Assembly: GCA_002424605.1 (NCBI GenBank)
Contig: DIKQ01000002.1
Location: 23,483-87,482, forward strand
DNA length: 64,000 bases
DNA from: Cloacimonetes bacterium UBA5614
Lineage (GTDB): Bacteria; Cloacimonadota; Cloacimonadia; Cloacimonadales; Cloacimonadaceae
Reading direction: 5' to 3'
Position numbers and translations under genes: made by a program. Position 1 is the first letter of the stretch. Every line of letters begins with the position of its first letter. Positions 2,311 to 23,380 of the stretch are shown piece after piece. Below the pieces are notes generated by a model. It was given only the letters and a program-made list of their open reading frames with translations, was not told the DNA's origin and searched no databases.

Positions 2311-2311
2311 A

Positions 2312-3058: not shown

Positions 3059-3066
3059 AGCTTATC

Positions 3067-4539: not shown

Positions 4540-4670
4540 TACTCCGTCCTATCTATCCGGTATGATTTTGATTTCCTTAGGGATTTATGATGAGAATCAC
4601 TTACGCTTCAATCTGAATGCAACTCTTCTGTCAATCATTTCTTTCCTTAGTTTAATACAATCCCGTCCTG

Positions 4671-4800
4671 TGTTTCCTTTATCTTTTCTTTGCCTGTTCC
4701 TTGCTTAGATGTCCCGAAGATGTCCCGAAGCCGGCCGGGTTTTCTTCGGGAGGCTTCGGGACATCTCCGCGACAACTAACTGAGGGAAAAGAGAGAAACA
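4671..4800. repeat. Element A copy 1: CT-rich leader plus modular palindrome (GATGTCCCGAA x2 ... CTTCGGGA x2)
   Basis: Near-identical to 11813-11930. Core 4697-4749 and 4754-4777 are identical by manual alignment. GATG modules start at 4708 and 4719 (11-nt period), and inverted CTTCGGG modules start at 4744 and 4754. Confidence 0.85.
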
Positions 4801-4819
4801 TATAAGAATAGAGTGCTTA

Positions 4820-5074
4820 GCAGAGTCGAATATCCCGGGCTCTGACCCGAATTCAGGACATAAAACTATACGAAAGCGGATATCTCCGTAATCGGACAGT
4901 GTTTGCATAAAGTGAAGACAGACAGTAGGATAGACTGCTTGTAGATAGGGTGTATTACGGATTCGGAGAAACCTCTTGAGCAGGAAAACCGGGATACGGA
5001 CGGCTATTGTGCTGCAAAATAGTGTGTTAAGATGTTGGAACAAAGATTGATTATACTTGACTTTGATATGATAT
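4820..5074 (+). promoter_or_regulatory. Duplicated non-coding control block (homolog of 15648-15901), including a fossil EBP-gene 3' end
   Basis: Collinear, high-identity manual alignment with the region between the EBP gene and the pseudo-receiver gene of unit 2. Confidence 0.8.
5036..5051 (+). promoter_or_regulatory. Candidate sigma-54 (-24/-12) promoter, TGGAAC-N5-TTGAT
   Basis: GG and TTG elements at the canonical spacing. Conserved in position with 15863-15878. An NtrC-type EBP is encoded in the locus. Confidence 0.45.
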
Positions 5075-5217
5075 GTGTAAGTATTGGTAATCAGTTCCAG
5101 CTATTATGAACAGGATGCATCTGCTGGATAAGAGTCCCCGGAATCGGACACAGGTGAAACTGGTTAGATCTTAGAAATCAGAATTATAAAAATAAACTAG
5201 AGAGTGAAGGAGAAGTC
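5075..5217 (+). pseudogene. Remnant of the pseudo-receiver gene (nonsense at codon 2 plus ~260-nt internal deletion)
   Basis: GTG TAA GTA TTG GTA here versus GTG AAA GTA TTG GTA at 15902. The 5' ~45 nt and 3' ~110 nt of the 15902-16327 gene are retained and the middle is missing. Confidence 0.75.
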
Positions 5218-8200
5218 ATGAAAAAGCTCGTTATAGTTTTTATGCTGTGCCTGCTGGGTGCGCTTCATGCAGAAACCCGTATAGTATCGTTAACCGATGC
5301 AAGGAGAATTGCAGACAGCAATGCCGCCATATTATGGGGCGGAAATCTCGGATCTGCAGAACCAATCCCTTACTACGGACCGGATGATAAAATCATAGCT
5401 TACCATTTCAACTATGCCATTGGCAGACCTTTTCCTGATAAACATTCTCTTCAGCAAAGAAGCGGTGAGGCACTGTCATCCGGTAACCGAGACCTGGGCT
5501 GGGGCGTGGGCGAATTTGGCAATATGGTTATCGGTGCTAATCGTAATATGCCCGTCTTTGTGGAATATTCCAAATGTCTCTCACAGCAATACGCTTATGC
5601 CCAAAAACTGGAAGAAGCAGCTTCCCGCGAGTTTCCCAAAGGATACGAACTGACCAAAACATACTATCTGGGACTGGTAGATGTCTGGTATAGAATAAAC
5701 GACGGGAATGAAACCAAATATATAAATCTTGAACCCTATACCAAGGTAAAAACAGAGACGGAATTTCGTGAGATGATAAAAGACAAGATCTTTTTCTGGG
5801 AAAGGGACAGTTTTGAGGAGGAATGGGAATACCTGCTGGATAACGGCAACACTATGAGCAGAGCAGAAGTGATGATTCCCGGTGAAGAGCTGATGCCATA
5901 CTATGAGTGGAACTATGGCTGCACACCAACTTCCGGAGCCATGCTTTTTGCCTGGTGGGATGCCTATAAAGGTTATGGTAAACTGATAAAGCACCATTCA
6001 ACCAAATGGGATCCTGTGGTTGGTCGATACACACATCACGTTCCAGATATTCAGGGTATACTGGCAAACACTATGGATACAGGTTCTGATGGCACTACTT
6101 ATTCGTGGGACATTTGTGATGGAATGGTCGATGCTGCAAGTATTGTCGGATACAACTGTGAATCTGACGGTCTTTGGGCTCTTCACCATACTGTAGCAAC
6201 CTTATTTAATGGAATTCGAAATTCAATTGATAGTGGTTATCCAATATTGGTTGACACCTGGTCACATACGATGTGTGCGGTTGGTTATGGAACCTGGCCT
6301 TCCATGGTTCTCGTGCATGACCCTAATCTACCAGCCATTAGATTTCTTTCCAGGTCCTCGTTATGGCGATACTATTGGGCAGATTTTGAACCTTTAAATG
6401 ACTTCCACTCGGCTGAGTTGAATTTTCCCAATGGCGGGACCCAGTGGGAGAATAACTTTGGCGGCGAAACTCTGATATCCGGAATCTATTATGACATTAC
6501 CTGGAGTTCCACACTCAGTCCCAATGCCTATGCCAAGATTTATTATCATGACGAGGGCGGATCGACATCCAACAGATGGTTTCCCATAACCTTATACACT
6601 CCCAATGACGGACATTACCGGTGGCTGGTTCCAACTATTCAGGGTTGTATGTACGGTATCAATACTGACTATGCCAGAGTAAAAATCGAAATCTATGATA
6701 ACAACACCCATCAATTGCTCGCCGCAGACGGGAGCTACGGCAATTTAAAAATAAAAGGCGATTACGTCATGCCCTGGTTGAATGCCGCAGGTACCAATAT
6801 CAATACCAGTAAAATTTACACCAGAATAAATCATTCGACCAATAATAACTGGGGACTGATTGCTTTCCGTGGTTCAAATAGCAACATAGACATAGAGCTT
6901 TACCAGAGTCCGGATTTTTACAATCAGCTATATACCTCGCAATCCCCTTCAAGTTTGAATTATATGCTGATAAACAACTTCCAGCAAACACCCAACGCTT
7001 ATGGAGTCAAGTTTGCTACAGATGTATCATCTTTTCAGGGTAGTGCTGCATTTGTAACATCCAATGCTTCACAAATAAGTCCATATATAACATACAATTA
7101 TGACTGGGGTAATACTGATATAGCCAAAGTTTATCAGGTTTACCTGACACCCGGTCAATATTCTATTACAATGCACAGAATTGCCGGTTTTATGGATCTT
7201 GATATAGCTCTCTATGCGCCTGGCTCGGGTGTTTATACCTATAACCAGGCAGTAGCATATTCCAATAATTACGGTACCGTTGATGATGTAATTGTTTACA
7301 GGGTTACAACTGCCGGTTATTATGCTTTGGTTGTCAGTTGCAGTTCCGAGCATAACGGAGAATACTCAATTCTTATCGAAAACGCCGGTAAATGGCTGGG
7401 GACGGTAAGCAACAACTGGTTCAACCCCGCTAATTGGGTAGGCAATACCGTGCCGAATTTAACAAACGATGTGGTAATACCTCCCGATTGTCCCAATTAT
7501 CCCATTCTTTGGTCAGGAACTTATCCCGAGATTAAGTCCATAAGGATTGAATCGAATGCTTTTCTGACCATCGGAGCCACCGAGATGAATGTCCACCAGA
7601 GCATGCAGGTCTATGGCACTATCAACATGACCTCGAACAGCAGCGTTTTGAGTGTGGGAGAAAACCTGTATTGGGGAGCCGGTTCTTCTCTGGTAGGCAG
7701 TATTTACAATTACCAGATAGTATGTTACAAAAACTGGGACTTTGGATTAGGTTCCAATATTCAGATGACTTCGGGTACCGTGGTATTCTGGGGGGACGAG
7801 GACAGCTATGTCACCACCAGTTCTGCCACTTCCAGGTTCAATAATGTGACCATAAACAAACAATACACTCTCACAGGCAGGTCTGTCATCCATAGCGGAA
7901 ACTCATCCAATGACTGGAGAGTTAACGGCAACCTCTTAATATCAAGCAGCTATTCCACCCTGCGCTCAGATTCAGAGAAAAAAATCATTTTGCTGAACCC
8001 CATTACCAACAACGGGTATATCGAACTGGATAATGGCACCCTTGAACTTACTGCCAGCTGTTCCCTTCCCTATCTATCCACTGGCAACTATCTTAACAAT
8101 CTTGTAATCAGCACTAATGCAGTCAATGCCTTGCCTTCAAATTATAAAATAGTGGGCAATCTCACCATCAACAGCGGTGGCATCGATGCCAACACCAGAA

Positions 8201-11200
8201 CCATTACCTTGTCCGGTAACTTTATAAACAATGTCGGACCTTCAGGATTTGTCAAAGGAACCAGTACCGTAATCTTTAACGGATACGGAGACCAGAGATG
8301 CACCAATGGCAATTTCCACCGCATGGAAGTTAACAAGACGACCGGCAATGTCAAATTCACGGGAACAGGTGCCATTTCAAATGTGGATATCTACGACTGG
8401 ACAACCGGCGGTATAGAAGTAAATCAGGGAGCTCTGACCATTTTTGATTTAGCGGATAACGGCTTGTATGGCACCTACAAAATGACGGGAGGTACTCTAA
8501 ACGTTAATCAGGATAACTCCCAATATACAGACCTTAATGGCAGTCTGTATATCTACAGCGGGACCATGAATGTCTATGGTGGAAACGGAAACAGCTACTG
8601 GCCATATGCAGCCAATGCCCACATAGAAATGCATGGCGGAGTGCTGGATTTCAAAAACCGCGGGATTTACGTCTACAATTCTCCGGTCTTTTCGCTGACT
8701 ACAGAGCTTTTTGGGGGCAGAATCCGCACAGCTGGAAGTTTTCTCTGTTACCGTCCGGACTTCCAGCCTGCCGGGGAGTATTACCTTGAACTTTATGGCA
8801 GTACGGATGCCAACATCTATCTGCATAGTTCCGCCTCGGTACACTCTGTAATATTCAACAAAGGCAGCAACCGTTCGGAGGCCTGTCCTCCCGGGCTTGA
8901 CCTGATAAGACGGGACGGGGTCGACTTTCCCGCAGAACTGCGCAATAGTGAAAATGACTTGACCAGAATCAATCAGGTTAACCTCATCAGCAACGTCTAT
9001 ATCTTCGGTGACCTGATTATCGAATCAGGTACCGTCAACCTGAACAGCTACACCCTGACCACTGAAAGCGATACTGATGTAATAAATGGCACCATTCTAA
9101 TGAACCAGGCATCAGCCCGGTTAGTGACCTATGGCAGATTCCAGTGGGGAGAGAATGCCACACTGAACGTCACTGCAGGTGAAATGCATTTCTATTATCA
9201 TCTTACTATAGCCGAGAATTCTGTCTTCCAGATGGGTTCCGCCACGACAGCCAGATTCTGGACTGAGTTCAGCAAAATTATCAACTATGGTGCCAACTGC
9301 CAGTTCGGCTATGTTGTGCTGGAAGACGGATGCGAACTGGAAATCCTGGACTTTCAGCCGGTTACGATTACAAGCGGCCTGATCCTCCAGGGCGAAAGCA
9401 TTCTGCAGGTCAATGGAGTCCTCAATGTCATCGGCTATGTTGTTGTCTATGAATATGCCAATATCTATATCCGGGCAAACACGACAATCGATTATTACAT
9501 CAATTTGTATGGTGTCCTGACCATAGATAACTCCACTTTAACCTGTCACAGTTACTTATATAACATTGGCGGATCTCTGGTCTTGAATAATAATGGCAGT
9601 TGCATACTTGACAGGGCATTTGACAGCACTTACCATCAGATGGATGGAGTATATATTATAAACAGCGGTGTATTTGAAGTTACGAACAACGGTGTCCAGT
9701 TTACCAACGACTCCTATGTTACCATGTATGGCGGCACCCTCCGCACCGGCTGGAATTTTTGGGCAACCATAGCCAACAGGTTTAATCCGGCTGGCGGCAG
9801 TGTGGAGTTTATCGGAGACAGAAACGCTTCCCTCTGGTGCAATAATGGCAATTACTTCCATAATCTCATCTTCAGCAAACCCGGCACCAGGAGTGTTGGG
9901 ATAAACACGGATTTGCAGATTAATGGTGATTTAATCCACCAGAGCGGTTATTCTGCTATGAACGGATACAACATCCACATCATGAGGGACGTAATTATCC
10001 ACGCAGGCAGAATGGGTGCTTCCAGCACCGACCTGACTGATATCTATGTGGGCAGGAACTGGATAAAAAATGGCGGCTCCTTTGTTGCGGGAACTAATTC
10101 ATTAAACGGCTGCACTGTGCATCTCATCAGTGCCGGTGAAAATGCCGTCCTCTCTACTGAATCATTCTATAACCTTCACATCAACAAACAGAATGCGGTC
10201 GGAAACATTGTTTCGCTGCAGCCCTCTGCTACTGTGCAGGTAAATGGCGCTCTGGACATTGAGCGGGGAAAACTGAATGTGTTGAGTAACAGCATCCTGG
10301 ATGTCAACAACCATCTGACCATCATGCCCGGTGGCGGTTTGCGCCTTAGTGATACTTATACTGGCGGAACCCTTAAACTGGCAGGAAACTTTACCGACCA
10401 GAACACCACTATGGCTGGAGGTGATGGCTTTCAGGCATTAGACGACTGCCTGGTAATTCTGGATGGAACTGCAGACCAATACTTAACCGCTAATTACCCC
10501 TGGCTGCAATTCTATCATTTGTCCGTCGACAAATCCTCCGGCAGGGTTATGCCAAACAGCAACGTGACAATCGCCAGAGAACTGCACCTTGTAAGAGGAG
10601 AGTGGCATTATGGGCAACAGAATGTGGAGTTAGCCATTGGTACAGATTTGGTCGTAGAAGCGGCTGCATCTTTCAATTATTTTACGGGTTGTGTCCGGTT
10701 TGAAAGCTGGAGGGACAGCAATATCACAATCCTTGGTACCGCTAATATGGCTGCTATCCGCATTGATAAAGGCGGCTTCAACTTCAATCTTACCGGGAAC
10801 ACCGTCATTGGCGGAGAACCGGAAATCAGCCTCTACTCCGGTATCATCAACCTGAACGGCCACACCCTTCAGTTGGATGCAGGCCGTATATACATTGGCT
10901 CTGCTGTTTCCACAGTATTTCTGCAGGCGGGTTCTGTCCTCAGTTTGGGCAATGATTTTGTGGTTGAGGTCGTCAACGGCGGCAGATTCGTCACACTGGG
11001 AACGGAAGCCAATCCGGCTCTTGTCACCAGTCATAATGGTTACTATATCTTTATTGTGTTTGATAATGGTAAAATCGGCGGAAGCTGGGGCATCTATGAA
11101 AAGATGAGTGCTGAAGGAATTTGGTTTGAACAGGCATCCAGCCCGGTTGATAATACTTACCCCTGGACTTATCCAACCTTCCGCAATGGCGCACCCGGCG

Positions 11201-11637
11201 GTTCTCTGCTGACCTTTGACGGAGATAATGTCAGCAACATTGTAATTCAAAATCCCATCTTTCCTGCCAATACCTGGGGCAGTATTTACAATGTCGAAAA
11301 GTTTTCATCAATCGGTTCCGTCACTCTGCAGAATGCTACAGGCGCTTTTGCCGGTGCAGTTTTTGAAAGTGACATGTATAACACCGTTCACTGGACTTAT
11401 GTTCTTCAACCACCACAGAACTTTAAAGTTCAAGTAATTAATAATGAATTGGTTTTTTCTTGGGATGCTGTCCCTAATGTCAACGGTTACAACTTGTACT
11501 ACTGTTCAGACCCTGATTTCTCAAGCTCTCCGGTGGGAACCGTTTCTGACGGGGTAGCTGATACGTTCTTTTCTACTCCCTTAATCTGGTTCCCTGAGCC
11601 CTATATGTTTTTCAGGGTAACTGCATTTCAGGATTAA
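5218..11637 (+). CDS. Giant secreted protein 1 (2139 aa): signal peptide, papain-like cysteine peptidase, PPC-like domain, long beta-helix repeat region, C-terminal FN3-like domain
   Basis: RBS GAAGGAG lies before the ATG. Signal peptide is MKKLVIVFMLCLLGALHA. Cys motif YGCTPTSGAM (Cys235, nt 5920-5922) and His motif SHTMCAVGYG (His350, nt 6265-6267). Repeated GNLTINSGG / LSGNFINN type strands. C-terminus has ...SWDAVPNVNGYNLYY...FFRVTAFQD. Confidence 0.9.
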   Translation: MKKLVIVFMLCLLGALHAETRIVSLTDARRIADSNAAILWGGNLGSAEPIPYYGPDDKIIAYHFNYAIGRPFPDKHSLQQRSGEALSSGNRDLGWGVGEFGNMVIGANRNMPVFVEYSKCLSQQYAYAQKLEEAASREFPKGYELTKTYYLGLVDVWYRINDGNETKYINLEPYTKVKTETEFREMIKDKIFFWERDSFEEEWEYLLDNGNTMSRAEVMIPGEELMPYYEWNYGCTPTSGAMLFAWWDAYKGYGKLIKHHSTKWDPVVGRYTHHVPDIQGILANTMDTGSDGTTYSWDICDGMVDAASIVGYNCESDGLWALHHTVATLFNGIRNSIDSGYPILVDTWSHTMCAVGYGTWPSMVLVHDPNLPAIRFLSRSSLWRYYWADFEPLNDFHSAELNFPNGGTQWENNFGGETLISGIYYDITWSSTLSPNAYAKIYYHDEGGSTSNRWFPITLYTPNDGHYRWLVPTIQGCMYGINTDYARVKIEIYDNNTHQLLAADGSYGNLKIKGDYVMPWLNAAGTNINTSKIYTRINHSTNNNWGLIAFRGSNSNIDIELYQSPDFYNQLYTSQSPSSLNYMLINNFQQTPNAYGVKFATDVSSFQGSAAFVTSNASQISPYITYNYDWGNTDIAKVYQVYLTPGQYSITMHRIAGFMDLDIALYAPGSGVYTYNQAVAYSNNYGTVDDVIVYRVTTAGYYALVVSCSSEHNGEYSILIENAGKWLGTVSNNWFNPANWVGNTVPNLTNDVVIPPDCPNYPILWSGTYPEIKSIRIESNAFLTIGATEMNVHQSMQVYGTINMTSNSSVLSVGENLYWGAGSSLVGSIYNYQIVCYKNWDFGLGSNIQMTSGTVVFWGDEDSYVTTSSATSRFNNVTINKQYTLTGRSVIHSGNSSNDWRVNGNLLISSSYSTLRSDSEKKIILLNPITNNGYIELDNGTLELTASCSLPYLSTGNYLNNLVISTNAVNALPSNYKIVGNLTINSGGIDANTRTITLSGNFINNVGPSGFVKGTSTVIFNGYGDQRCTNGNFHRMEVNKTTGNVKFTGTGAISNVDIYDWTTGGIEVNQGALTIFDLADNGLYGTYKMTGGTLNVNQDNSQYTDLNGSLYIYSGTMNVYGGNGNSYWPYAANAHIEMHGGVLDFKNRGIYVYNSPVFSLTTELFGGRIRTAGSFLCYRPDFQPAGEYYLELYGSTDANIYLHSSASVHSVIFNKGSNRSEACPPGLDLIRRDGVDFPAELRNSENDLTRINQVNLISNVYIFGDLIIESGTVNLNSYTLTTESDTDVINGTILMNQASARLVTYGRFQWGENATLNVTAGEMHFYYHLTIAENSVFQMGSATTARFWTEFSKIINYGANCQFGYVVLEDGCELEILDFQPVTITSGLILQGESILQVNGVLNVIGYVVVYEYANIYIRANTTIDYYINLYGVLTIDNSTLTCHSYLYNIGGSLVLNNNGSCILDRAFDSTYHQMDGVYIINSGVFEVTNNGVQFTNDSYVTMYGGTLRTGWNFWATIANRFNPAGGSVEFIGDRNASLWCNNGNYFHNLIFSKPGTRSVGINTDLQINGDLIHQSGYSAMNGYNIHIMRDVIIHAGRMGASSTDLTDIYVGRNWIKNGGSFVAGTNSLNGCTVHLISAGENAVLSTESFYNLHINKQNAVGNIVSLQPSATVQVNGALDIERGKLNVLSNSILDVNNHLTIMPGGGLRLSDTYTGGTLKLAGNFTDQNTTMAGGDGFQALDDCLVILDGTADQYLTANYPWLQFYHLSVDKSSGRVMPNSNVTIARELHLVRGEWHYGQQNVELAIGTDLVVEAAASFNYFTGCVRFESWRDSNITILGTANMAAIRIDKGGFNFNLTGNTVIGGEPEISLYSGIINLNGHTLQLDAGRIYIGSAVSTVFLQAGSVLSLGNDFVVEVVNGGRFVTLGTEANPALVTSHNGYYIFIVFDNGKIGGSWGIYEKMSAEGIWFEQASSPVDNTYPWTYPTFRNGAPGGSLLTFDGDNVSNIVIQNPIFPANTWGSIYNVEKFSSIGSVTLQNATGAFAGAVFESDMYNTVHWTYVLQPPQNFKVQVINNELVFSWDAVPNVNGYNLYYCSDPDFSSSPVGTVSDGVADTFFSTPLIWFPEPYMFFRVTAFQD

Positions 11638-11760
11638 AAGCACCCATGTATAATTACTGTGATGGTTGTTGTAAGCACAATGGATTTCTTCTGAAATCGC
11701 TTTTGTGCATGATAAGATTGTGATTCTAAGCATAGTGTAACAACTATCAAATCAAACTGC

Positions 11761-11797
11761 GGCTGCCGCGCTCTCCTTGCCGGCAGCCGTTTTTTTT
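11761..11797 (+). terminator. Rho-independent terminator of giant gene 1
   Basis: GGCTGCCG ... CGGCAGCC stem followed by T8. Same sequence as 22792-22828. Confidence 0.85.
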
Positions 11798-11812
11798 CTA
11801 TACTAATAAAAG

Positions 11813-11930
11813 TTGTTTCCTGCTTCTTCCTTGCTTAGATGTCCCGAAGATGTCCCGAAGCCGGCCGGGTTTTCTTCGGTTATCTTCGGGACATCTCCGC
11901 GACAACTCACTGAGAAAGTAAAGAGAAACA
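11813..11930. repeat. Element A copy 2
   Basis: tgtttcctgcttcttccttgcttaGATGTCCCGAAGATGTCCCGAAGccggccgggttttCTTCGGttatCTTCGGGACATCtccgcgacaac, near-identical to copy 1. Confidence 0.85.
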
Positions 11931-11971
11931 GATAAGTTGACTGGTTACATCCAATGCTGTGCAAATCAAGA

Positions 11972-12000
11972 TTGACATAATATCTAAAAGAGATTAATTA
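11972..12000 (+). promoter_or_regulatory. Candidate sigma-70-type promoter for the kinase/EBP operon
   Basis: TTGACA, 17 nt, then TAATTA, about 55 nt upstream of the ATG at 12054. Confidence 0.3.
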
Positions 12001-12053
12001 GGATGTATGGTAATATTGATTAGTTTTTTTGTTTGGAACGTTTATGGTGAAGT

Positions 12054-14306: not shown

Positions 14307-15673
14307 ATACGCAACACATTCTGATTCTGGACGACGAACCCCGCCTGAGAGAGGAATTACTTGAGTTCCTGACTGATGAAGGATACAAATGCTTTGAAGC
14401 CAGCTCTCCTTCCGAAGCTATGAAAGTAATCAGGGCAAACAGGATAGACATAGCCATAGTGGACATCAATCTGCCTGAAAAAGATGGCATTGCAGTCTTG
14501 AAGGAAATCAAGGAATATGACGAGGATATTGAAGTCCTGATGATAACCGGACAGGGAGATATGGATCTTGCCATCCGTTCGATGCGGTCCGGAGCTGCTG
14601 ATTTCTTTAACAAACCCATTCAGCCAGAAGAAGTCCTGCAGGCAGTGGAACGGAGCAAGCGTTTCATCAATCTCACCCGGCGCTGCCAGCATTTACGCAA
14701 CAATTATGACAGGGTGTTTCATGAACTGCAGGATAATCTGGGATTGCAGATGCTGGGCACCAGTAAAGCCATCAGGGAGATAAAGTCCGATATTGAGACC
14801 GCAGCAAAAAACCCTGACACAGCAGTCCTGATCAGCGGTGAAAGCGGTACGGGAAAGGAACTGGTTGCTCGCAGCATCCATCACCTGAGCGCCCGGAAAC
14901 ATCACTATTTCTATGCGGTTAATTGCGCTGCTATTCCGGAAAACCTGTTTGAAAGCGAGTTCTTTGGATATACCAAAGGTGCCTTCACAGGCGCTGCCGC
15001 CAATAAGCAGGGCTGGTTTGAAATTGCCGACAAAGGAACGCTGTTTTTAGACGAAATCGGCGATATGCAGCCCTTTATGCAGGCGAAACTGCTGCGTGTG
15101 ACGGAAGACGGAGTGGTTCACAGATTGGGGAGCAACAGGGATATCCAGGTCAATGTCAGATTGATTTCCGCCACTAACCGGGATATAGCAGATTTGGTTG
15201 ATAAGGGGATTTTCAGGCAGGACCTCTATCATCGCCTGAACACTATACAGATACATATCCCTCCCCTGAGGGAACGCCGGGAAGACATCCCTGTCCTGGT
15301 GGAACACTTCCTGCGTCATTTTACCCAAAAGACCGGAAAAGCCATCCCGGAAATTGAATCAGGCCTTTTGGACAAATTGATGCAATATCCCTTCAAAGGC
15401 AATGTCAGGGAGTTGAAGAATATGCTGGAAAGGGCTGTCATCCTCTGCGATGGCTCCCGGCTCAGCCAAAAGCACTTTAACTCGCTTGGCAACGACAAAT
15501 CAAACCACCATTCACCATCTGGCGAACCTGAAAATCTGAACTTGGAATCCCTGGAAAAAGAAGCGGTGAAAAAAGCTCTGCAAAGCTGCGGCAACAACAA
15601 ACAGCAGGCGGCAAAACTACTCAATATTACCTGGCAGTCACTGGAACGCAGAATCAAGAAACACGGGCTCTGA
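14303..15673 (+). CDS. NtrC-family sigma-54-dependent response regulator (REC, AAA+, Fis-type HTH)
   Basis: REC domain (ILILDDE, VDINLP). Walker A GESGTGKE, sigma-54 contact loop GAFTGA, Walker B LFLDEIG. C-terminal HTH AAKLLNITWQSLERRIKK. ATGA overlap with the kinase gene. Confidence 0.92.
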   Translation: MNTQHILILDDEPRLREELLEFLTDEGYKCFEASSPSEAMKVIRANRIDIAIVDINLPEKDGIAVLKEIKEYDEDIEVLMITGQGDMDLAIRSMRSGAADFFNKPIQPEEVLQAVERSKRFINLTRRCQHLRNNYDRVFHELQDNLGLQMLGTSKAIREIKSDIETAAKNPDTAVLISGESGTGKELVARSIHHLSARKHHYFYAVNCAAIPENLFESEFFGYTKGAFTGAAANKQGWFEIADKGTLFLDEIGDMQPFMQAKLLRVTEDGVVHRLGSNRDIQVNVRLISATNRDIADLVDKGIFRQDLYHRLNTIQIHIPPLRERREDIPVLVEHFLRHFTQKTGKAIPEIESGLLDKLMQYPFKGNVRELKNMLERAVILCDGSRLSQKHFNSLGNDKSNHHSPSGEPENLNLESLEKEAVKKALQSCGNNKQQAAKLLNITWQSLERRIKKHGL

Positions 15674-15862
15674 GCCGAACTCAGGATAGATAGCTATACG
15701 AAAGCGGATACCTCCGTAATCGGATAGTGTTAGCATAAAGTGATGACAGACAGCAGGATAGACTGCATTTCTGCGGATGTTTGACGGAATCGGATAGTCT
15801 TTTTGAGGCGGAAATCCGGGACGCGGACAGCTATTGTGCTGCAATATAGTGTGTTAAGGTTT

Positions 15863-15878
15863 TGGAACAAAGGTTGTT
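15863..15878 (+). promoter_or_regulatory. Candidate sigma-54 (-24/-12) promoter, TGGAAC-N5-TTGTT
   Basis: Lies about 25 nt upstream of the GTG at 15902, which is preceded by RBS GAGGTGA. Positionally conserved with 5036-5051. Confidence 0.45.
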
Positions 15879-15901
15879 AATACTAATAGCAGAGGTGAGA
15901 T

Positions 15902-16327
15902 GTGAAAGTATTGGTAACCAAGTCCAGCCTTTATGAACGGGATGAACTGCAGGAGTTTTTCCAGGACCATTCCTGGGAGCCCACTTTTGCAGAAGAGTCC
16001 AAAACGATGTATCAGATGCTGTCGCGGGAGGATTTTGATACAGTCCTGTTTAATCTCAGCAGTACGGATGACTTTGCTGCCATCAGGTACATTAACAGGA
16101 ACTATCCGAATATCCGGGTGATAGTTTCCACCGATGACAGGCTGGTATCGACCATCCGCAATGTGCGGGCAGGCAAGTTCACGGTAACGGGCCATCTGGA
16201 AAAGATGAATCTGCTGGAAAAGCTGTTCCCGGAATCGGACACAGGCGAAACTGCTGATACAGGAAAGTCGGAAATAGAAGAAGTCAGAAATATAAAAATC
16301 AACAAGAGAGTGAAGGAGAAGTTATGA
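15902..16327 (+). CDS. Stand-alone pseudo-receiver (REC-like fold lacking phospho-acceptor residues)
   Basis: GTG start after GAGGTGA. By eye it aligns to CheY-like receivers, but the acidic pair is TK (KVLVTKSS), the phospho-Asp position is Asn (VLFNLSS), and the conserved Lys is absent. ATGA overlap with giant gene 2. Confidence 0.65.
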   Translation: MKVLVTKSSLYERDELQEFFQDHSWEPTFAEESKTMYQMLSREDFDTVLFNLSSTDDFAAIRYINRNYPNIRVIVSTDDRLVSTIRNVRAGKFTVTGHLEKMNLLEKLFPESDTGETADTGKSEIEEVRNIKINKRVKEKL

Positions 16328-19300
16328 GAAAGCTCGTTATAGTTTTTTTGCTGTGCCTGCTGGGTACGCTTTATGCTGAAACCCGCATAGTGTCGTTAAC
16401 CGATGCAAGGAGAATTGCAGACAGCAATGCTGCCATATTATGGGGCGGCAATCTCGGTTCTGCAGAGCCAATACCTTACTACGGACCGGATGATAAAATC
16501 ATTGCTTATCATTTCAACTATGCCATCGGCAGACCTTTTCCTGATAAACATTCTCTTCAACAAAGAAGCGGAGAGGCATTTTCATCAGGTAACCGAGATC
16601 TTGGCTGGGGCGTGGGCGAATTTGGCAATATGGTTATCGGTGCCAATCGCGGCATGCCAGTGTTCATAGAATATGGCAAAGGGCTTTCCTACATATTGGC
16701 TATGGGAAACAAGCTAGAGGAAGTTGCCCGTAAAGAATTTCCTGCAGGATACACTCTGGAAAAAACCTATTATCTTGGTTTGGTCCATATCTGGCACAAG
16801 ATAACCTCCGGCACAGAGGTGCGCTATATTAATCTGCAGCCATATACAAAGGTTATTGGAGAATCTGAGTTCCGGGAAATGGTAAGCACCAGAGCTTTCT
16901 TTTGGGAACGCGGTAATTTTGATGAAGAATGGACCACTTTTTTAGACAATGATGGGACCATCGGACGCTCTGATGTCTGGGTTGTTGGTGAAGAATATAT
17001 GCCGTTTTACGAATGGAGTTATGGCTGCACTCCCACTGCAGCAGCAATGATATGCGCCTGGTGGGACCACTACAAAGGTTATTCCCGTCTGATAGATTAT
17101 CATATTTCACGAGGAGACCCTGTACAGGATGGCTATGATCACCATGTTCCCACTATACAAGGCTTACTTGCTGCTCATATGGATACTGATCCATCTACCG
17201 GAGGAACAGCGGTCAGTGATATCAGTGATGGTATTATAAATGCAGTGGAATCTTTAGGCTATGAATGCTCTTCCGACGGTTTAATTGGCTGGAACGAAGA
17301 CAGCAACGATGTTTATTGGGAAATCATTGATCAGATTGATGGTAATCATCCCTGTATGGTCGGAATTGATAGACATTCTATAGCTGGTGTGGGGTACAAT
17401 CTGACAACCCGGTCAATAATTATTCATGATTCTAACCGTTCTTATGCCTACCAAATTACCCGTTCAATGCTCGAAAGATATCAGTGGGTGTCCCTTCAGC
17501 CTATCAGTAACAATTACTATCTGGAAATCACCTACCCCAATGGAGGCGAAGTCTGGGGTTCAAATATTGGTGGCGGAACTCTTATTTCAGGTGTCTATTA
17601 CGACATTACCTGGAATGGAATGTTGAGTTCAGAGACATATGCCAAGCTATATTACCATCACGAGGGAGGACAAAATCCAGATCGCTGGTTTCCAATCACA
17701 ACATTTACTCCCAATGACGGGCATTATCAATGGCTGGTACCCATCCCGCAAGATTGTGTATTTGGGATTAATACTGATTACAGTAGGGTTAAGATCGAAA
17801 TATATGATTTGAATACCCATGAAATGCTAGCCGCTGATGGCAGTTTTGGCAATTTCAAAACAGGGGGAAGTTTTACTGTTCCTGAACTTACTTTGAATGC
17901 AACTCATTTATTTGGTGGCAATAACCTTTTTGTCGCTCCACAAACTGAAACAGGTACCTGGGGCGCAGTTATTGTAAAAGAAGATCCATTAATGTTGGGA
18001 ACAAAGATTGAATTATTTAATGGTCCGGACTTTTATCAGGAGTATGTAGAATCAATATCCAGCGAGAAAATCAATTATGTTATGATTAACAATCATCAGT
18101 TGCTACCCAGAGAATATGGAGTCAGAATATCAAATATGTATAGTACAGATAATGTATCAACATGGGCATCTAATTCCTCAATACCCGGTCTAATATTGAA
18201 TCCCGGGACTCCGCACACCGATATTTGGACTTCAGGTGTTTTAGGCAAAGTATTTAATGTGTATCTAAATCCCGGGAGTTACTTTTTTGAAATGACAATG
18301 GATTCTTATATGAATCTGGATTTTGCTTTGTTTACTCCATTCGGAGCAGGTGGTATCTATACTTATAATCAAGCAGCTGCTTACTCCAGAAATTCACTTT
18401 TTGGGGGTAGTGAAGGATTTTTCTACACAGTCCCCGAAGCTGGATACTATGGTCTGATTGTTACAGCAAGGGTAAATGGCGTTGGCACTTATAACATCAA
18501 CATCCACAATCCCGGTAAATGGCTGGGAACTGCCGATACCAACTGGTTCAATCCTGCCAACTGGATTGGCAATTCCGTGCCGAATTTTACAAACGATGTG
18601 GTAATACCAGGCGGATGTCCCAATTATCCCATTATTCTGACAGGAACTTATCCTGAGATAAAGTCTATATCTGTTGAAGCGAATGCTTTACTCACCATAG
18701 GCGCTACCGAAATGAATGTGCACCAGAGCATGCAGGTCTATGGCATTATCAACATGACCTCGAACAGCAGCGTTTTGAGTGTGGGTGAAAACCTGTATTG
18801 GGGAGCCGGTTCTTCTCTGGTAGGCAGTATTTACAATTACCAGATAGTATGTTACAAAAACTGGGACTTTGGATTAGGTTCCAATATTCAGATGACTTCG
18901 GGAACCGTAGTATTCTGGGGAGATCAGGACAGCTATGTCACCACCAGTTCTGCCACTTCCAAGTTTAATAATGTTACCCTGAATAAAATCACGGCAGGGC
19001 GTTCAGTAATCCATAGTGAATATTCCAGCAATGACTGGAGGATATACGGCAACCTGACAATCTCAAATTCCAACACCACGTTAAGTTCGGAAACAGATAA
19101 GAAAATCCAGATATATAGCAGTATTACCAATAATGGGCATATCCAGTTGGATAACGGAACAGTCGATTTCAAGATAGGAAGCTCATTGCCTGTCCTCAAT
19201 ACAGGCGATTACTTTTATGGCTTGACCATCAGCACTACTACCGCTTTATCTCTGCCTTCCAATTACAGCATCAGTGGTGACCTCACTATCTCCAGTGGAG

Positions 19301-22300
19301 GCATCAATGCCAACACCAGAGCCATTACCTTGTCCGGCAACTTCATAAACAATGTGGGACCTGCAGGGTTTGTCAAAGGCACCAGTACCGTTATCTTTAA
19401 CGGCGGCGGAGACCAGAGATGCACCAATGGCAATTTCTATCGTATGGAGATTGCAAGCCAGTACTGCAATGTTATATTCACGGGAGCCGGAGCAACATCA
19501 ACCTGCGATATCTATGACTGGACGGCCGGTTCATTGGAAGTGGAGCAGGGAACTCTAAACATTTTAGATTTAGCGGATAACGGCTTGTATGGCAATTACA
19601 TGTTAACGGGTGGTACTCTTAATGTTAATCAGGATAACTCCCAATACACAGACCTTAATGGCAGTCTGTATATCTACAGTGGGACCATGAATGTCTATGG
19701 CGGAAACGGCAACAGCTACTGGCCATATGCAGCCAATGCCCATATTGAAATGCACGGCGGAGTGCTGGATTTCAGGAATCGCGGCATCTATATTTATAAT
19801 TCTCCCACGTATACACTGACCACAGAGCTCAGGGGTGGTATAATCCGTACAGCCGGAAGCTTCCTCTGTTACAGGCCGGATTTCTGGTTTGCTGATGAGC
19901 ATTACATTGAGCTCTACGGGTCTACAGATGCCAATATCTATCTGCACAGTTCCGCCGGTTTTCACTCATTTATCTTCAACAAAGGTTCTGCCCGGGCGGA
20001 TGCCTGCCCTGCCGGCCTTGACCAGATAGAGAGGGAAGGCGTGGAACTGCCGGTTGAACTGCGTAGCAGCAACAGCAGCGCTACCCGGGCAAATACCGTT
20101 AACCTCATCAGCAACGTCTATATCTTCGGTGACCTGATTATTGAATCAGGTACCGTCAACCTGAACAGCTACAACCTGACCACTGAAAGCGATTCTGATG
20201 TCATGGGTGGCACCATTATTATGAACCAGGCATCAGCCCGGTTAGTGACTTATGGCAGATTCCAGTGGGGAGAGAATGCCGTTCTCAATGCTACGGCAGG
20301 TGAGATGCATTTCTATCACAGTCTGACTTTTGCTGAGGACTCAGTCTTCCAGATGGGTACGGGTACTACAGCCAGATTCTGGACTGAGTTCAATACCATT
20401 GCCAGTTACGCAGACATCTGCCAGTTTGGGAATGTTGTCCTGGAAGACGACTGCGAAATGGAAATCCTGAATTATCAGCCCATCACGATAACGGGTAATA
20501 TGTCTCTGCTTGGTGAAAGCATCCTTCGGGCAGATGGCGTTATCAACATTAGTGGCAGCTTTACGGACAATGAATATGCCTACACGTATATCCAGACAGA
20601 TATGACGGTTAATCAGAACATCCTGCTATACGGTGTCCTGACTATAGAAAACTCCACTCTCACCTGTCATGGCAACTTCCAGAACCTTGCCGGAAGCCTT
20701 GTCCTTAGCAATAATGGTAACTGCATAATTGACAGACCTTTTGACAGCACCTACCAGTTGATTGAGGGAGGCTTGATTATCAGTAGCGGTGTGTTTGAAG
20801 TCACTAACAATGGTATCCAGTTTACCAATGACGCCTATCTTGCTATGGATGGCGGCACCATCCGCACCGGCTGGAATTTTGTGGCAACCAGTTCCAATGT
20901 CTTCAATCCCGATGGCGGAAGCGTGGAGTTTATCGGCGACAGGAATGCCACAATTGAATGCAACAACGGCAATTATTTCTATGATATCGTCTTCAACAAA
21001 CCCATCACAACCAATGTTGTTTCGGTTCTGACTGACCTGAGTGTAGGGCTTGACTTCACCGTACTGGGTGGAAATCCGGCTTTAAACGGTAACAACATTT
21101 ACATTAGTCGTGATATGATAATCAATGGTGGCAGGGTCTCTGCCTCCAGTAACTCTCTTACGGACATCTATGTCGCCAGGAACTGGATTAACAATGTCGG
21201 AACAACTGCGTTTTCCGAGGGCACCACTCCGTTAAACTATTCCACCGTACATTTCTACGGTGCAGAAAACTCCATTGTATCGACCGAGACGTTTTATGTG
21301 TTGCGTATCAATAAAAGCACCTCAGGCAGCTACACTGTGACTCCTCAGGCCGGGGCAACGATTACTGCCAAGGGTCCGGTGGAGATTGTAAGGGGTAATT
21401 TGCAGCTCAGGGATAATTGCATCCTTGATGTTAATAGCAGTATCAATATCTCTGCTGGCGGGGGCTTGGACCTTAGTGACACATCGTCTTACGGAACGCT
21501 TTATCTGACGGGAAATCTTTATGATGCAAATACTACTTTCGGCTCAGGAGTCGGGTTTGATGCCATTGCCGAATGCCATGTTATCCTTGATGGCGGTGGA
21601 GACCAGATTATTGACGCTAACCGCAGCAATGTTCAGTTCTACAATCTCACAGTCAACAAACCCTCCGGAAGGGTTATGCCCCATAAAAATGTCTCCACCT
21701 CCGGCTACCTTCATCTGATTTCAGGTGAATGGAATTATGGAGTGGCAGGCTTGGTCAAATTAATCATGACCAACCTGATTATAGAAGCTGCTGCTTCCTT
21801 TACTGATAATACCGGCATAGTTCTTTTTGATGGCTGGATTGTCAGCGAAGCAAGAATTCTTGGCAATGCCTCGCTGGGAACTATCAACATTGACAAAGGT
21901 GCGTATAGCTTCAACCTGAGCGGGAATGTGTCCTTGGCAGGAACCACCACCCTGAACCTGATCAGCGGTAATATCAATTTAAACGGGTACACTCTGCAGA
22001 TGACTGGCACCCTAAATCTGGCAAACTATCTTTATCTGCAGCCAAGCTCCGTCCTCAGCCTGGGAAACAACTCCGTGCTGAATGTCAACAACGGCGGCAG
22101 GTTCATTACGCTGGGAACGCAAGCCAATCCTGCCCTGGTCACCAGTCATGACGGCTATTATGCCTTTAACGTGAACGATTATGGGAAAATCGGCGGTAGC
22201 TGGGGAATCTACGAAAAGATGAATATCAATGGAATTCTCTTTGCTCAAAGGACAAGCATTGACAGCGAATATCCCATGCAGTACCCGACCTTCCGCAACG

Positions 22301-22752
22301 GTGCTCCCGGCGGTTCCCTGCTGCGCGTTAATTGGGCTGCTGCCAGTAACAACGTAATCCAGAATCCCATCTTCCCTGCCAATACCTGGGGAGGGCTCTA
22401 TAACGTCAGGAAGGCAGGCGGCACCGGTTCCATCACTCTCCAGAATGCCACCGGTGCTTTTTCCGGAGCAGCGTTTGAATATGACCCCTATGGCACTGTA
22501 CACTGGACCTATCCGGTCGCTCCGGGAGTTCCCCAGAACGTTCAGATTATCCGGGTCTCAGGCAATGCAGTGCTTTCCTGGAATGCTGTTGCCGGAGTTA
22601 CGGGATACAAAATATACCGTGCTGTTTCTCCGGAACTGATGGGTGAAGCCATACTGGTCGGAACCACCGCACAGACCTCTTTCACGGATACGGTTCATCC
22701 GTTGGGTTCACATACTGCGGGATTCTACTTTGTGAAGTCTTATGTAGATTAA
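16324..22752 (+). CDS. Giant secreted protein 2 (2142 aa), paralog of 5218-11637
   Basis: Same architecture as protein 1. Signal peptide MRKLVIVFLLCLLGTLYA, Cys motif YGCTPTAAAM, His motif RHSIAGVGYN, beta-helix repeats, C-terminal FN3-like ...SWNAVAGVTGYKIYR...FYFVKSYVD. Confidence 0.9.
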   Translation: MRKLVIVFLLCLLGTLYAETRIVSLTDARRIADSNAAILWGGNLGSAEPIPYYGPDDKIIAYHFNYAIGRPFPDKHSLQQRSGEAFSSGNRDLGWGVGEFGNMVIGANRGMPVFIEYGKGLSYILAMGNKLEEVARKEFPAGYTLEKTYYLGLVHIWHKITSGTEVRYINLQPYTKVIGESEFREMVSTRAFFWERGNFDEEWTTFLDNDGTIGRSDVWVVGEEYMPFYEWSYGCTPTAAAMICAWWDHYKGYSRLIDYHISRGDPVQDGYDHHVPTIQGLLAAHMDTDPSTGGTAVSDISDGIINAVESLGYECSSDGLIGWNEDSNDVYWEIIDQIDGNHPCMVGIDRHSIAGVGYNLTTRSIIIHDSNRSYAYQITRSMLERYQWVSLQPISNNYYLEITYPNGGEVWGSNIGGGTLISGVYYDITWNGMLSSETYAKLYYHHEGGQNPDRWFPITTFTPNDGHYQWLVPIPQDCVFGINTDYSRVKIEIYDLNTHEMLAADGSFGNFKTGGSFTVPELTLNATHLFGGNNLFVAPQTETGTWGAVIVKEDPLMLGTKIELFNGPDFYQEYVESISSEKINYVMINNHQLLPREYGVRISNMYSTDNVSTWASNSSIPGLILNPGTPHTDIWTSGVLGKVFNVYLNPGSYFFEMTMDSYMNLDFALFTPFGAGGIYTYNQAAAYSRNSLFGGSEGFFYTVPEAGYYGLIVTARVNGVGTYNINIHNPGKWLGTADTNWFNPANWIGNSVPNFTNDVVIPGGCPNYPIILTGTYPEIKSISVEANALLTIGATEMNVHQSMQVYGIINMTSNSSVLSVGENLYWGAGSSLVGSIYNYQIVCYKNWDFGLGSNIQMTSGTVVFWGDQDSYVTTSSATSKFNNVTLNKITAGRSVIHSEYSSNDWRIYGNLTISNSNTTLSSETDKKIQIYSSITNNGHIQLDNGTVDFKIGSSLPVLNTGDYFYGLTISTTTALSLPSNYSISGDLTISSGGINANTRAITLSGNFINNVGPAGFVKGTSTVIFNGGGDQRCTNGNFYRMEIASQYCNVIFTGAGATSTCDIYDWTAGSLEVEQGTLNILDLADNGLYGNYMLTGGTLNVNQDNSQYTDLNGSLYIYSGTMNVYGGNGNSYWPYAANAHIEMHGGVLDFRNRGIYIYNSPTYTLTTELRGGIIRTAGSFLCYRPDFWFADEHYIELYGSTDANIYLHSSAGFHSFIFNKGSARADACPAGLDQIEREGVELPVELRSSNSSATRANTVNLISNVYIFGDLIIESGTVNLNSYNLTTESDSDVMGGTIIMNQASARLVTYGRFQWGENAVLNATAGEMHFYHSLTFAEDSVFQMGTGTTARFWTEFNTIASYADICQFGNVVLEDDCEMEILNYQPITITGNMSLLGESILRADGVINISGSFTDNEYAYTYIQTDMTVNQNILLYGVLTIENSTLTCHGNFQNLAGSLVLSNNGNCIIDRPFDSTYQLIEGGLIISSGVFEVTNNGIQFTNDAYLAMDGGTIRTGWNFVATSSNVFNPDGGSVEFIGDRNATIECNNGNYFYDIVFNKPITTNVVSVLTDLSVGLDFTVLGGNPALNGNNIYISRDMIINGGRVSASSNSLTDIYVARNWINNVGTTAFSEGTTPLNYSTVHFYGAENSIVSTETFYVLRINKSTSGSYTVTPQAGATITAKGPVEIVRGNLQLRDNCILDVNSSINISAGGGLDLSDTSSYGTLYLTGNLYDANTTFGSGVGFDAIAECHVILDGGGDQIIDANRSNVQFYNLTVNKPSGRVMPHKNVSTSGYLHLISGEWNYGVAGLVKLIMTNLIIEAAASFTDNTGIVLFDGWIVSEARILGNASLGTINIDKGAYSFNLSGNVSLAGTTTLNLISGNINLNGYTLQMTGTLNLANYLYLQPSSVLSLGNNSVLNVNNGGRFITLGTQANPALVTSHDGYYAFNVNDYGKIGGSWGIYEKMNINGILFAQRTSIDSEYPMQYPTFRNGAPGGSLLRVNWAAASNNVIQNPIFPANTWGGLYNVRKAGGTGSITLQNATGAFSGAAFEYDPYGTVHWTYPVAPGVPQNVQIIRVSGNAVLSWNAVAGVTGYKIYRAVSPELMGEAILVGTTAQTSFTDTVHPLGSHTAGFYFVKSYVD

Positions 22753-22791
22753 TTATCTGCTTAATAAGCAGTTAACTCCAAGCAAAACCAA

Positions 22792-22828
22792 GGCTGCCGC
22801 GCTCTCCTTGCCGGCAGCCGTTTTTTTT
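22792..22828 (+). terminator. Rho-independent terminator of giant gene 2
   Basis: GGCTGCCG ... CGGCAGCC stem followed by T8. Confidence 0.85.
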
Positions 22829-22842
22829 ATACTGAAGAATAT

Positions 22843-22945
22843 TGTTTCCTGCTTCTCCCTTTATGAGATGTCCCGAAGATGTCGCGGAGATGGCCGGGTT
22901 TTCTTCGGGAGGCTTCGGGGCATCTTCGGGACATCTAAGTAAGCG
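22843..22945. repeat. Element A copy 3 (rearranged variant, 3 + 3 modules)
   Basis: Same CT-rich leader (tgtttcctgcttctccc). GATG modules start at 22867, 22878 and 22889. CTTCGGG modules start at 22903, 22913 and 22924. There is a perfect 16-bp pairing between 22866-22881 and 22921-22936. Confidence 0.8.
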
Positions 22946-23050
22946 GGGATTGAGCAATATTCATGCGGGAAAATAAATCTGCTTGACAATGTTTCCTCAT
23001 TATATCAAGGTGATAAATGTAAGATAATTAGTCTAACCATCAACAGATTT

Positions 23051-23380
23051 ATGTATCGCAAGGGGGATATGATGAACGTTGAGCTCACCTATGATGGCAA
23101 GACCGCAGTAATGAAGATTGACGGTATTCTGACCAGTGATAACAGCTATATATTGCAGGACAGGCTGAATGAAGTGCTGAAAAGCGAAGCCTCGGTACTG
23201 GAGATGGATTTGCTGGAATGCCGTAACATCAGCAGTACCGGTATCGGCAAAATTTTACTTTTTTACAAAGACTTCATAGCCAAAGGCGGGGAAATAGAGG
23301 TCGTTCGCTGTTCCCACGGCGTTTACGAGCTGTTCTCCATGTTAAAACTGAATCAGCTTTTCACGGTGAACCTGGGATAG
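23051..23380 (+). CDS. STAS-domain anti-sigma-factor antagonist (SpoIIAA/RsbV-like)
   Basis: ~100-aa STAS pattern (MKIDGILTSDNSYILQDRL...ISSTGIGKILLF...VRCSHGVYELFSMLKLNQLF). The true start is probably ATG 23069 or 23072, after AAGGGGGA. Confidence 0.75.
   Translation: MYRKGDMMNVELTYDGKTAVMKIDGILTSDNSYILQDRLNEVLKSEASVLEMDLLECRNISSTGIGKILLFYKDFIAKGGEIEVVRCSHGVYELFSMLKLNQLFTVNLG

Follow-up and report, generated by a model that had tools for sequence, protein, structure and literature searches.

Two diverged genes for giant proteins at a strain-variable and probably recombining locus of a Cloacimonadota bacterium

We analysed a stretch of 64,000 nucleotides (nt) from Cloacimonetes bacterium UBA5614 (contig DIKQ01000002.1; hereafter the window), in which two genes for giant, predicted secreted proteins, giant 1 and giant 2, lie in tandem within collinear units bounded by three copies of a palindrome, element A (Table 1). 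Unit 2, between the middle and right copies (A2 and A3), consists of genes for a TPR kinase, a sigma-54 enhancer-binding protein (EBP), a pseudo-receiver and giant 2, and a Pfam scan agrees that it is complete. Unit 1, between the left and middle copies (A1 and A2), holds giant 1 behind the remains of its regulators, a 26-nt tail of the EBP gene and a broken receiver gene. An earlier interpretation made from the letters of the window alone (the sequence-only reading) had described this layout correctly, including the three palindromes at the unit boundaries and the absence of any transposase or integrase, and had explained it as a duplication of about 11 kb whose upstream copy had decayed. The two homologous units and the loss of the upstream regulators stand, but giant 1 is intact, and we consider it probable that this is a strain-variable, recombining locus for giant secreted proteins, not a fresh duplication in decay.

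Blastn of positions 4600-11950 against 11800-22950, the comparison proposed in that reading, returned the single plus-strand collinear diagonal it had placed at an offset of about 11.1 kb. The diagonal comprises segments 4836-5128 against 15664-15954 (80% identity), 5114-5543 against 16204-16649 (89%), 6458-6751 against 17567-17860 (72%), 7385-9882 against 18512-21003 (78%, E = 0), 10974-11400 against 22089-22512 (74%) and 11761-11904 against 22792-22933 (86%), and a repeat search of the window recovered the same families. Owing to indels the offset moves from 10,828 to about 11,090-11,127 and then to 11,031, the first of these moves occurring because about 250 nt are missing from the small receiver gene of unit 1. 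Alignment confirmed all the proposed shared parts, namely the EBP tail with its stop codon, the non-coding block, the receiver, the giant open reading frame (ORF) and the terminator, and the giant ORFs align end to end at 61% amino acid (aa) identity. Both terminators have 11-nt loops and for that reason escaped a terminator scan.

The closest relative of giant 2 (P0001, 83%) is encoded on a 648-kb contig, L001. Window positions 1-4806 correspond to L001 808-5613 at 98.0% identity and 11821-16674 to 5498-10351 at 96.1%, with the further flank at 97.6%, which places L001 in the same species as the window. Gene order in this near-identical strain is HlyD gene, A, kinase, EBP, pseudo-receiver, giant gene, A and STAS gene. 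L001 lacks exactly window positions 4807-11820 (7014 bp) and has a single 116-nt A in place of A1 and A2; unit 1, with a duplicated A at its borders, is thus polymorphic within the species, present in one strain and absent from another, and the extra DNA amounts to 7.0 kb, not 11 kb. Five JGI and Logan contigs, of which four measure 0.2-1 Mb, encode the exact P0001 protein, and the protein collection contains no giant-1-like protein from the L001 sample, indicating that the single-unit state did not arise by misassembly. The two-unit order is repeated identically in two assemblies, L004 and L005, which show 0 mismatches between them and three indels and so probably represent the same data set. 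L004 (JGI 3300000558 Draft_10004510) differs from the window by three single-base indels alone; these break the reading frames of the EBP (392 aa) and giant 2 (1287 + 843 aa) into fragments and are sequencing or assembly errors rather than biology. A corresponding module from another species, encoding the giant protein P0004 on contig L003, has about 72% DNA identity in the kinase and EBP genes and a different genomic context, as is also apparent from the type II CRISPR-Cas locus (Cas9, Cas1; L003 1-3883) about 1.8 kb upstream of it.

Divergence between the giant genes was estimated by the Nei-Gojobori method. The ratio of nonsynonymous to synonymous substitution rates (dN/dS) is 0.23 over the whole gene, with dS of 1.6 in the C-terminal third, 0.77 in the middle and saturation over aa 116-730; between giant 2 and the L001 gene, dS outside the variable head is 0.03-0.08. 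For giant 1 against giant 2, the proportion of synonymous differences (pS) lies at 0.6-0.99 across most of the gene versus 0.02-0.08 between strains, a synonymous divergence about 25-50 times the between-strain value. Judged by these values, giant 1 is intact and under purifying selection, and the two giant genes appear to be old mosaic paralogues or alleles, both kept functional, and not recent copies.

The mosaic structure emerged from neighbour-joining trees of gene segments with nine relatives and bootstrap support. For aa 116-320, giant 1 pairs with P0001 (100) and then with P0004 (99), leaving giant 2 outside; for aa 321-730, giant 1, P0004 and P0001 form a clade (100), again without giant 2. 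For aa 731-1400 the pairing is instead giant 2 with P0001 (100), joined by giant 1 (98-100), and for aa 1401-2142 giant 1 groups with P0004 (100) and giant 2 with P0001 (100). The L001 gene is itself chimeric. It shares a near-identical patch with giant 1, is a third allele type beyond that patch (55-86% identity to the window giants), and is giant-2-like (97-100%) from about 18512 on. Between giant 1 and giant 2, synonymous divergence collapses in an island at 7618-7775, interpreted here as a gene-conversion tract, and falls to a pS of 0.14 in a second island at 5218-5337, indicating recombination tracts and not constraint at the protein level. The mosaic trees, the patch and the islands all show recombination, in which segmental, non-reciprocal transfer between copies in one genome may have had a part. 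The hypervariable head (aa ~117-730) is framed by a conserved 5′ edge made up of the promoter block, the signal peptide and the first 115 aa, and by a conserved 3′ edge made up of the terminator and A. Conserved ends around a variable head are the geometry expected of cassette exchange by homologous recombination.

Table 1. Features of the two units and their boundaries (window coordinates)
Feature	Position	Strand	Remarks
Element A1	4691..4806	.	left boundary of unit 1; palindrome arms 4679-4737, 4747-4805
Unit 1 in the strict sense	4807..11820	+	7014-bp block, missing from conspecific strain L001
EBP-gene fossil	4820..4845	+	last 26 nt including TGA 4843-4845; matches 15648-15673
Unit 1 non-coding block	4846..5074	+	74-80% identical to 15674-15901
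Sigma-54-like -24/-12 element, unit 1	5036..5051	+	TGGAACAAAGATTGAT
Pseudo-receiver remnant, unit 1	5075..5217	+	three lesions relative to unit 2 counterpart
Giant gene 1	5218..11637	+	2139 aa, intact ORF
Giant 1 patch	5512..5868	+	357 nt, 98.3% (6 mismatches) to L001 gene; giant 2 60-68% here
Near-zero synonymous island	7618..7775	+	pS 0.04 (7618-7737); 116-nt identical run 7660-7775
Intrinsic terminator, giant 1	11760..11797	+	hairpin GGCTGCCG..CGGCAGCC, then T8
Element A2	11821..11936	.	middle copy, 118 nt 5′ of kinase ATG
TPR-HisKA-HATPase sensor kinase	12054..14306	+	no obvious membrane segment
NtrC-type sigma-54 enhancer-binding response regulator (EBP)	14303..15673	+	receiver, AAA+, Fis-type helix-turn-helix (HTH)
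Sigma-54-like -24/-12 element, unit 2	15863..15878	+	TGGAACAAAGGTTGTT
Pseudo-receiver, 141 aa	15902..16327	+	stop overlaps giant 2 start (ATGA)
Giant gene 2	16324..22752	+	2142 aa; hypervariable part 16674-18512 (aa ~117-730)
Intrinsic terminator, giant 2	22792..22828	+	hairpin and T8 identical to unit 1 terminator
Element A3	~22850..22965	.	right boundary; palindrome 22859-22943; ~110 nt 5′ of STAS ATG (23051)

Element A1 is an imperfect palindrome built on two tandem 11-mers GATGTCCCGAA and an inverted copy, and A1 and A2 are 89% identical. The element folds as a long hairpin (-42 to -58 kcal/mol, z -4.8 to -7.2) and occurs at three sites in the window and nowhere else in it, where shuffled sequence would be expected to give 0. 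When the 18-mer core was searched against genome and metagenome contig collections, chance matches of 19-33 nt were returned and no full element. A2 is a hybrid with an A3-type left flank on the terminator side and an A1-type core, identical to A1 over about 50 nt, as far as the few informative sites allow; it looks like the join-point of recombination between a downstream and an upstream A. Its structure fits unequal crossover and Campbell-type integration of an A-bearing circle equally well, and recombination of A1 with A2 would delete exactly 7014 bp and leave the L001 state. Both A2 and A3 are followed by AAATC..TTGACA. Since A3 stands ahead of a STAS gene pair and A2 ahead of the kinase, A precedes two signal-transduction operons at a similar distance, and its position suggests a regulatory role.

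Several observations concern A or palindromes of comparable design. The pair just 3′ of A3 (23051-24286) resembles a partner-switching module, with a STAS-domain protein and a receiver-HATPase_c_2 (RsbW-like) protein. Contig L002 (Logan SRR11844737_195570, 11,006 bp), an independent contig from the single-unit strain, starts in the upstream A, ends in the downstream A and holds exactly the four-gene module; its ends most likely reflect a de Bruijn break at the repeated 11-mers, and less probably it is a circular or excised form of the module. An ECF-type sigma-70 gene (57193-57690) and a Peptidase_C26/GATase gene (58077-58826) flank a second modular palindrome with A-like architecture (57811-57937), which precedes the GATase gene by about 140 nt. 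The words CCTTGCTT and CCTGCTTCT in the outer arms of this palindrome recur on the left side of A, and the core contains a different tandem 11-mer, ATCAAGCGTAT, twice with an inverted copy; the two may belong to a family of palindromes near promoters whose 11-mer cores can be exchanged. In distant Cloacimonadota, solo giant genes with no kinase or EBP (contigs L030 and L032) also adjoin long imperfect palindromes. The one on L030 (9555-9622) is about 380 nt upstream of the giant gene, and those on L032 (16308-16378 and 16441-16492) begin 44-180 nt downstream, the first of them holding a repeated AAGCGGTA word.

The unit 2 regulators have the domains of a sigma-54 two-component pair (EBP Pfam matches: Sigma54_activat, 3e-66, plus Response_reg and HTH_8). 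Their NCBIfam matches (AtoS/AtoC, PEP_resp_reg, FimS) are partial and all under the curated cut-offs, so the pair is not an equivalog of any named system. The 141-aa ORF scores 17.5 bits for Response_reg in Pfam against a gathering cut-off of 30.2, carries Asn in the phospho-acceptor place and lacks the acidic (DD) pocket, and by these criteria it is a pseudo-receiver at best. Giant 2 is translationally coupled to it. In unit 1 the corresponding gene reads GTG-TAA at 5075-5080, with a nonsense codon in second place; it has also lost about 250 internal nt (counterpart ~15955-16203) and is shifted in frame by 1 nt. Giant 1 has kept the Shine-Dalgarno sequence GAAGGAG, the same as before giant 2.

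A putative sigma-54 element, TGGAAC-N5-TTG, is conserved in four loci from two species (both units, L001 and the more distant L003), with one further match elsewhere in the 64 kb, by chance. About 140-150 nt 5′ of this promoter lie putative activator sites TCCGTAATCGGA (4885-4896 in unit 1, 15713-15724 in unit 2), conserved also in L001 and L003. A second, half-conserved putative site (AATCGGA/ATTCGGA) lies about 65-70 nt 5′ of the promoter in both units (ACGGATTCGGA at ~4957-4967 in unit 1; ~15784-15794 in unit 2). In distant relatives, solo giant genes with no EBP beside them had neither TGGAAC-N5-TTG nor TCCGTAATCGGA upstream, and a sigma-70 promoter scan was uninformative (53 found versus 34 expected). 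As unit 1 keeps the conserved TGGAAC-N5-TTG and TCCGTAATCGGA sites, the one EBP, encoded in unit 2, could plausibly control giant 1 in trans. A third AATCGGA word, GGAATCGGACACAGG, was seen at 5142 and 16233, about 75-90 nt before each giant start, where it falls inside the pseudo-receiver 3′ end in unit 2 and inside the dead remnant in unit 1; positions 5131-5215 are about 85% identical between the units though non-coding in unit 1.

NtrC-family systems act on sigma-54 promoters of surface structures in PilS/PilR and pilin, FleS/FleR and PrsK/PrsR (PEP-CTERM), and FimS of Porphyromonas is a TPR kinase. The present module resembles them in having the kinase and a receiver-AAA+-HTH EBP adjoining the target gene and a GG-N10-TTG element with putative upstream palindromic sites. 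It differs in its non-canonical -12 element, in the pseudo-receiver translationally coupled to the target, and in that one EBP would serve two promoters.

Both giant proteins start with a Sec-type signal peptide, recognised by eye, followed by a clan-CA-like cysteine-peptidase domain, PPC-like beta-sandwiches, a long beta-solenoid and a C-terminal FN3 domain. In an AlphaFold2 model of residues 1-730 (mean predicted local distance difference test, pLDDT, 89), Foldseek matched the beta-sandwiches to PPC/collagen-binding domains and the head weakly to the C10 cysteine peptidase prointerpain A (3bb7; rank 48, E 9e-5, template-modelling score 0.17-0.34). The model of residues 943-2142 (pLDDT 88) consists of the long beta-solenoid and then the FN3 domain; Foldseek found no significant PDB match for the solenoid body and matched the FN3 tail alone, and a PDB sequence search with giant 2 returned nothing at E <= 1. 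Cys235 and His351 are invariant in 24 relatives, Pfam Peptidase_C39_2 scores 18.6 bits for giant 1 against a gathering threshold of 24 and gives no match for giant 2, and precomputed PF13529 matches exist for relatives. On this evidence the head may tentatively be called a clan-CA cysteine-peptidase-like domain, with a predicted activity only. Among known systems the giant proteins recall C10/C39-type clan-CA cysteine peptidases, such as interpain A and streptopain, fused to adhesin-like beta-solenoids. Shared with them are the weak Peptidase_C39_2 and prointerpain A matches and the invariant Cys235/His351; unlike in those enzymes, the domain here is N-terminal in a protein of 2140 aa with PPC, beta-solenoid and C-terminal FN3 parts.

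Cloacimonadota and some Bacteroidales encode the relatives, which are giant proteins too. Several distant ones bear type IX secretion system (T9SS) tails (PF18962), and the family as a whole has no above-threshold Pfam domain. Elsewhere in the window, an 883-aa protein with CarboxypepD_reg domains (46624-49275) carries a weak, sub-threshold Por_Secre_tail (E 3e-4), and L004/L005 also encode a Peptidase_M1 protein with Por_Secre_tail; going by these two proteins, the organism probably has a type IX secretion system. A search of the literature on giant or surface proteins of Cloacimonadota with sigma-54 found nothing relevant.

Taken as a strain-variable, recombining locus, the arrangement would work as follows. 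The core module between two A copies comprises the TPR kinase, the sigma-54 EBP and a sigma-54-type promoter driving the pseudo-receiver and a giant protein. A second, 7.0-kb cassette, also between two A copies, lies upstream of the kinase in this strain, with the EBP tail, promoter block, dead pseudo-receiver, giant gene 1 and terminator. Homologous recombination between A copies would make this arrangement and could undo it, the middle A being the join, and strains of the species would acquire or lose unit 1 as a whole. The conserved ends and internal islands of the giant genes would let them trade segments, both between the two copies and with alleles from other strains and species. The kinase would phosphorylate the EBP and thereby direct sigma-54 transcription of the pseudo-receiver and giant 2; the same EBP would act in trans on the giant 1 promoter, whose leader of about 160 nt holds the dead receiver. 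One signal would then yield two proteins of the same stalk architecture with very different heads, and the second copy could serve as a reservoir for chimeras.

Two histories are about equally compatible with this scheme. In the first, an ancient duplication was followed by loss of the kinase and EBP genes, long coexistence with recombination, and recent loss of unit 1 in L001, which would account for the giant-1-identical patch in that strain. In the second, a diverged allele fragment from a related lineage was captured at a resident A, which would account without an extra event for the start of unit 1 at the A1 edge, 26 nt before the EBP stop codon. Under the first history unit 1 would once have carried a kinase and an EBP here; under the second it would never have done so.

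A number of points weigh against the recombining-locus reading or parts of it. In the upstream A of L001, A1-type and A2-type sites alternate in patches (A2, A2, A1, A2), unlike in a single-crossover product, and the A sequences are compatible with gain here as well as with loss in L001. Only three alleles of the species are in the databases, and the two-unit state probably comes from one sample. Canonical sigma-54 promoters read TGGCAC-N5-TTGC, with GG at -24 and GC at -12. Here the -12 element reads TTGA or TTGT, the C of GC being missing and the spacing correct. No RpoN box was found in the 64-kb window. Sigma-54 control and trans-activation of the giant genes are predictions from the sequence. 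Neither giant protein showed a Por_Secre_tail, T9SS or any other anchor domain in the Pfam and NCBIfam scans, and their surface location is a reasonable inference from the signal peptide, the fold and the relatives.

The recombining-locus reading has a parallel in the concept, reportedly due to Rodriguez-Valera and Lopez-Perez, of replacement-type flexible islands (metagenomic islands) that encode giant surface proteins in environmental bacteria. As in such islands, a hypervariable surface gene occupies a fixed site between flanks 96-98% identical, alleles differ far more than the genomes do, and exchange would proceed through conserved edges. The difference is that two tandem alleles occur here in one genome, tied to a dedicated sigma-54 two-component system.

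Recent import is the alternative with the best prospects, and we give it a substantial chance, if somewhat below even. A fragment or circle from a related lineage, with one A and a cargo of EBP 3′ end, promoter block, giant allele and downstream A, would have entered the chromosome through the upstream A already present, by recombination of Campbell type or by homology-facilitated illegitimate recombination, and unit 1 would never have had regulators in this genome. This would suit the DNA identity of 60-80% between units versus 96-98% between strains, the grouping of parts of giant 1 with another species' gene, the duplicated 116-nt A on either side of the block, the 13-nt stretch at the left junction (4807-4819) whose source is not evident, and a left junction exactly at the A1 end that requires no second deletion. 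However, no donor was found among 5.8 billion proteins, the non-coding block and aa 731-1400 of unit 1 are closest to unit 2, both units have the same GC content, and the giant-1-identical patch in the single-unit strain is also explained by an ancestor with unit 1.

A strict in-situ 11-kb tandem duplication by A x A recombination, followed by a 3.7-kb deletion of kinase and EBP and decay of the upstream copy, with L001 either never duplicated or having lost the copy, seems unlikely to us. It accounts for the collinear order of parts down to the EBP tail, for the hybrid A2 join with A copies at all boundaries, and for the three receiver lesions. Yet giant 1 is intact over 6.4 kb with its low dN/dS, pS between the giants far exceeds that between strains that differ in unit 1, the C-terminal third of giant 1 is sister to P0004 from another species (bootstrap 100) and not to giant 2, and the deletion must begin exactly at the right edge of A. 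The picture of one decaying 11-kb duplication drawn by the sequence-only reading is not supported, because giant 1 is intact, constrained, older than the strain split and mosaic, in a block that varies among strains. A softer form, with ancient duplication, later reshuffling and recent loss in L001, is possible and is folded into the recombining-locus reading. Known rrn-, IS- and REP-mediated duplications in Salmonella and E. coli arise by unequal recombination between flanking direct repeats. The locus is like them in its direct repeats (A) at both ends and at the join, its hybrid join copy, its varying copy number among conspecific strains and its lack of a transposase. Unlike theirs, its copies are 61% identical at the aa level with synonymous sites near saturation, the upstream unit is without the 3.7 kb of kinase and EBP, and the repeat appears to be a locus-specific 116-nt palindrome and not a dispersed element; as the copies are neither similar nor equal in content, the locus lacks the marks that define a recent tandem duplication. 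A transposon-borne duplication was ruled out by the absence of any transposase or integrase.

It is also improbable, though worth stating, that A is a dedicated recombination and regulatory palindrome through which regulator-less cassettes are inserted and excised beside the sigma-54 module with no recombinase in cis and are used for segmental conversion. If so, A would mark a cassette-based surface-variation system under one EBP in free-living or syntrophic Cloacimonadota.

We also doubt that giant 1 is a silent donor cassette for conversion into an expressed giant 2. Mosaic alleles, conversion-like tracts among giant 1, giant 2 and the L001 gene, and loss of the unit 1 regulators would fit such a role, but giant 1 is full length with start codon, signal peptide and Shine-Dalgarno sequence, has a conserved promoter-like block upstream and its own terminator, and its dN/dS over the whole ORF implies selection on the protein; known silent cassettes are truncated and promoterless. 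Surface variation by segmental gene conversion is known from Neisseria pilE/pilS, Borrelia vlsE/vls and Treponema tprK. In common with those systems the locus has side-by-side paralogous surface-protein copies, mosaic alleles, near-identity tracts within diverged sequence, and a variable head between conserved ends. It departs from them in its one extra copy of full length with its own promoter-like block, Shine-Dalgarno sequence and terminator, in that programmed high-frequency switching is not evident, and in its host, which is environmental and not a pathogen. With a full-length donor that has a promoter-like block, it lacks a defining mark of silent-cassette antigenic variation. A diversity-generating retroelement was rejected too, no reverse transcriptase being seen among the ORFs scanned against Pfam.

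Lastly, an assembly artefact, in which the two-unit structure or the chimeric L001 gene is a mis-join of co-existing strains, is very improbable: all data are metagenome assemblies, the two-unit assemblies probably stem from the same reads and L002 breaks exactly inside A at both ends, but an assembler could neither collapse nor expand units that are 60-80% identical, splicing of the two window giants does not yield the variable part of the L001 gene, and the recurrence of P0001 on long contigs and the missing giant-1-like protein in its sample speak for a real single-unit strain.

The recombining locus joins three familiar themes, repeat-mediated duplication and deletion, hypervariable surface islands and NtrC-type control. 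It is a familiar evolutionary kind of locus with an uncharacterised protein family, extending known principles and not overturning them, as the logic of repeat-mediated duplication and loss and of recombination at hypervariable surface loci is already well known. It would offer a natural example of how giant surface-protein genes diversify in an uncultured phylum: one genome holds side by side alleles as diverged as those of separate species, a whole block comes or goes between strains, and segments are reshuffled. New is the wiring of a TPR kinase, a sigma-54 EBP, a pseudo-receiver and a giant peptidase/beta-solenoid protein, in which one activator would serve two promoters, and the giant protein family has no curated domain model over most of its length. 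Such loci also break assemblies and confuse strain binning.

Rfam searches at gathering thresholds and tRNA searches across the window gave no matches. The flanks are ordinary chromosome, with EF-G and a MacAB-type ABC/HlyD efflux system upstream and the STAS protein, the receiver-HATPase_c_2 protein, PrmC and EPSP synthase downstream.

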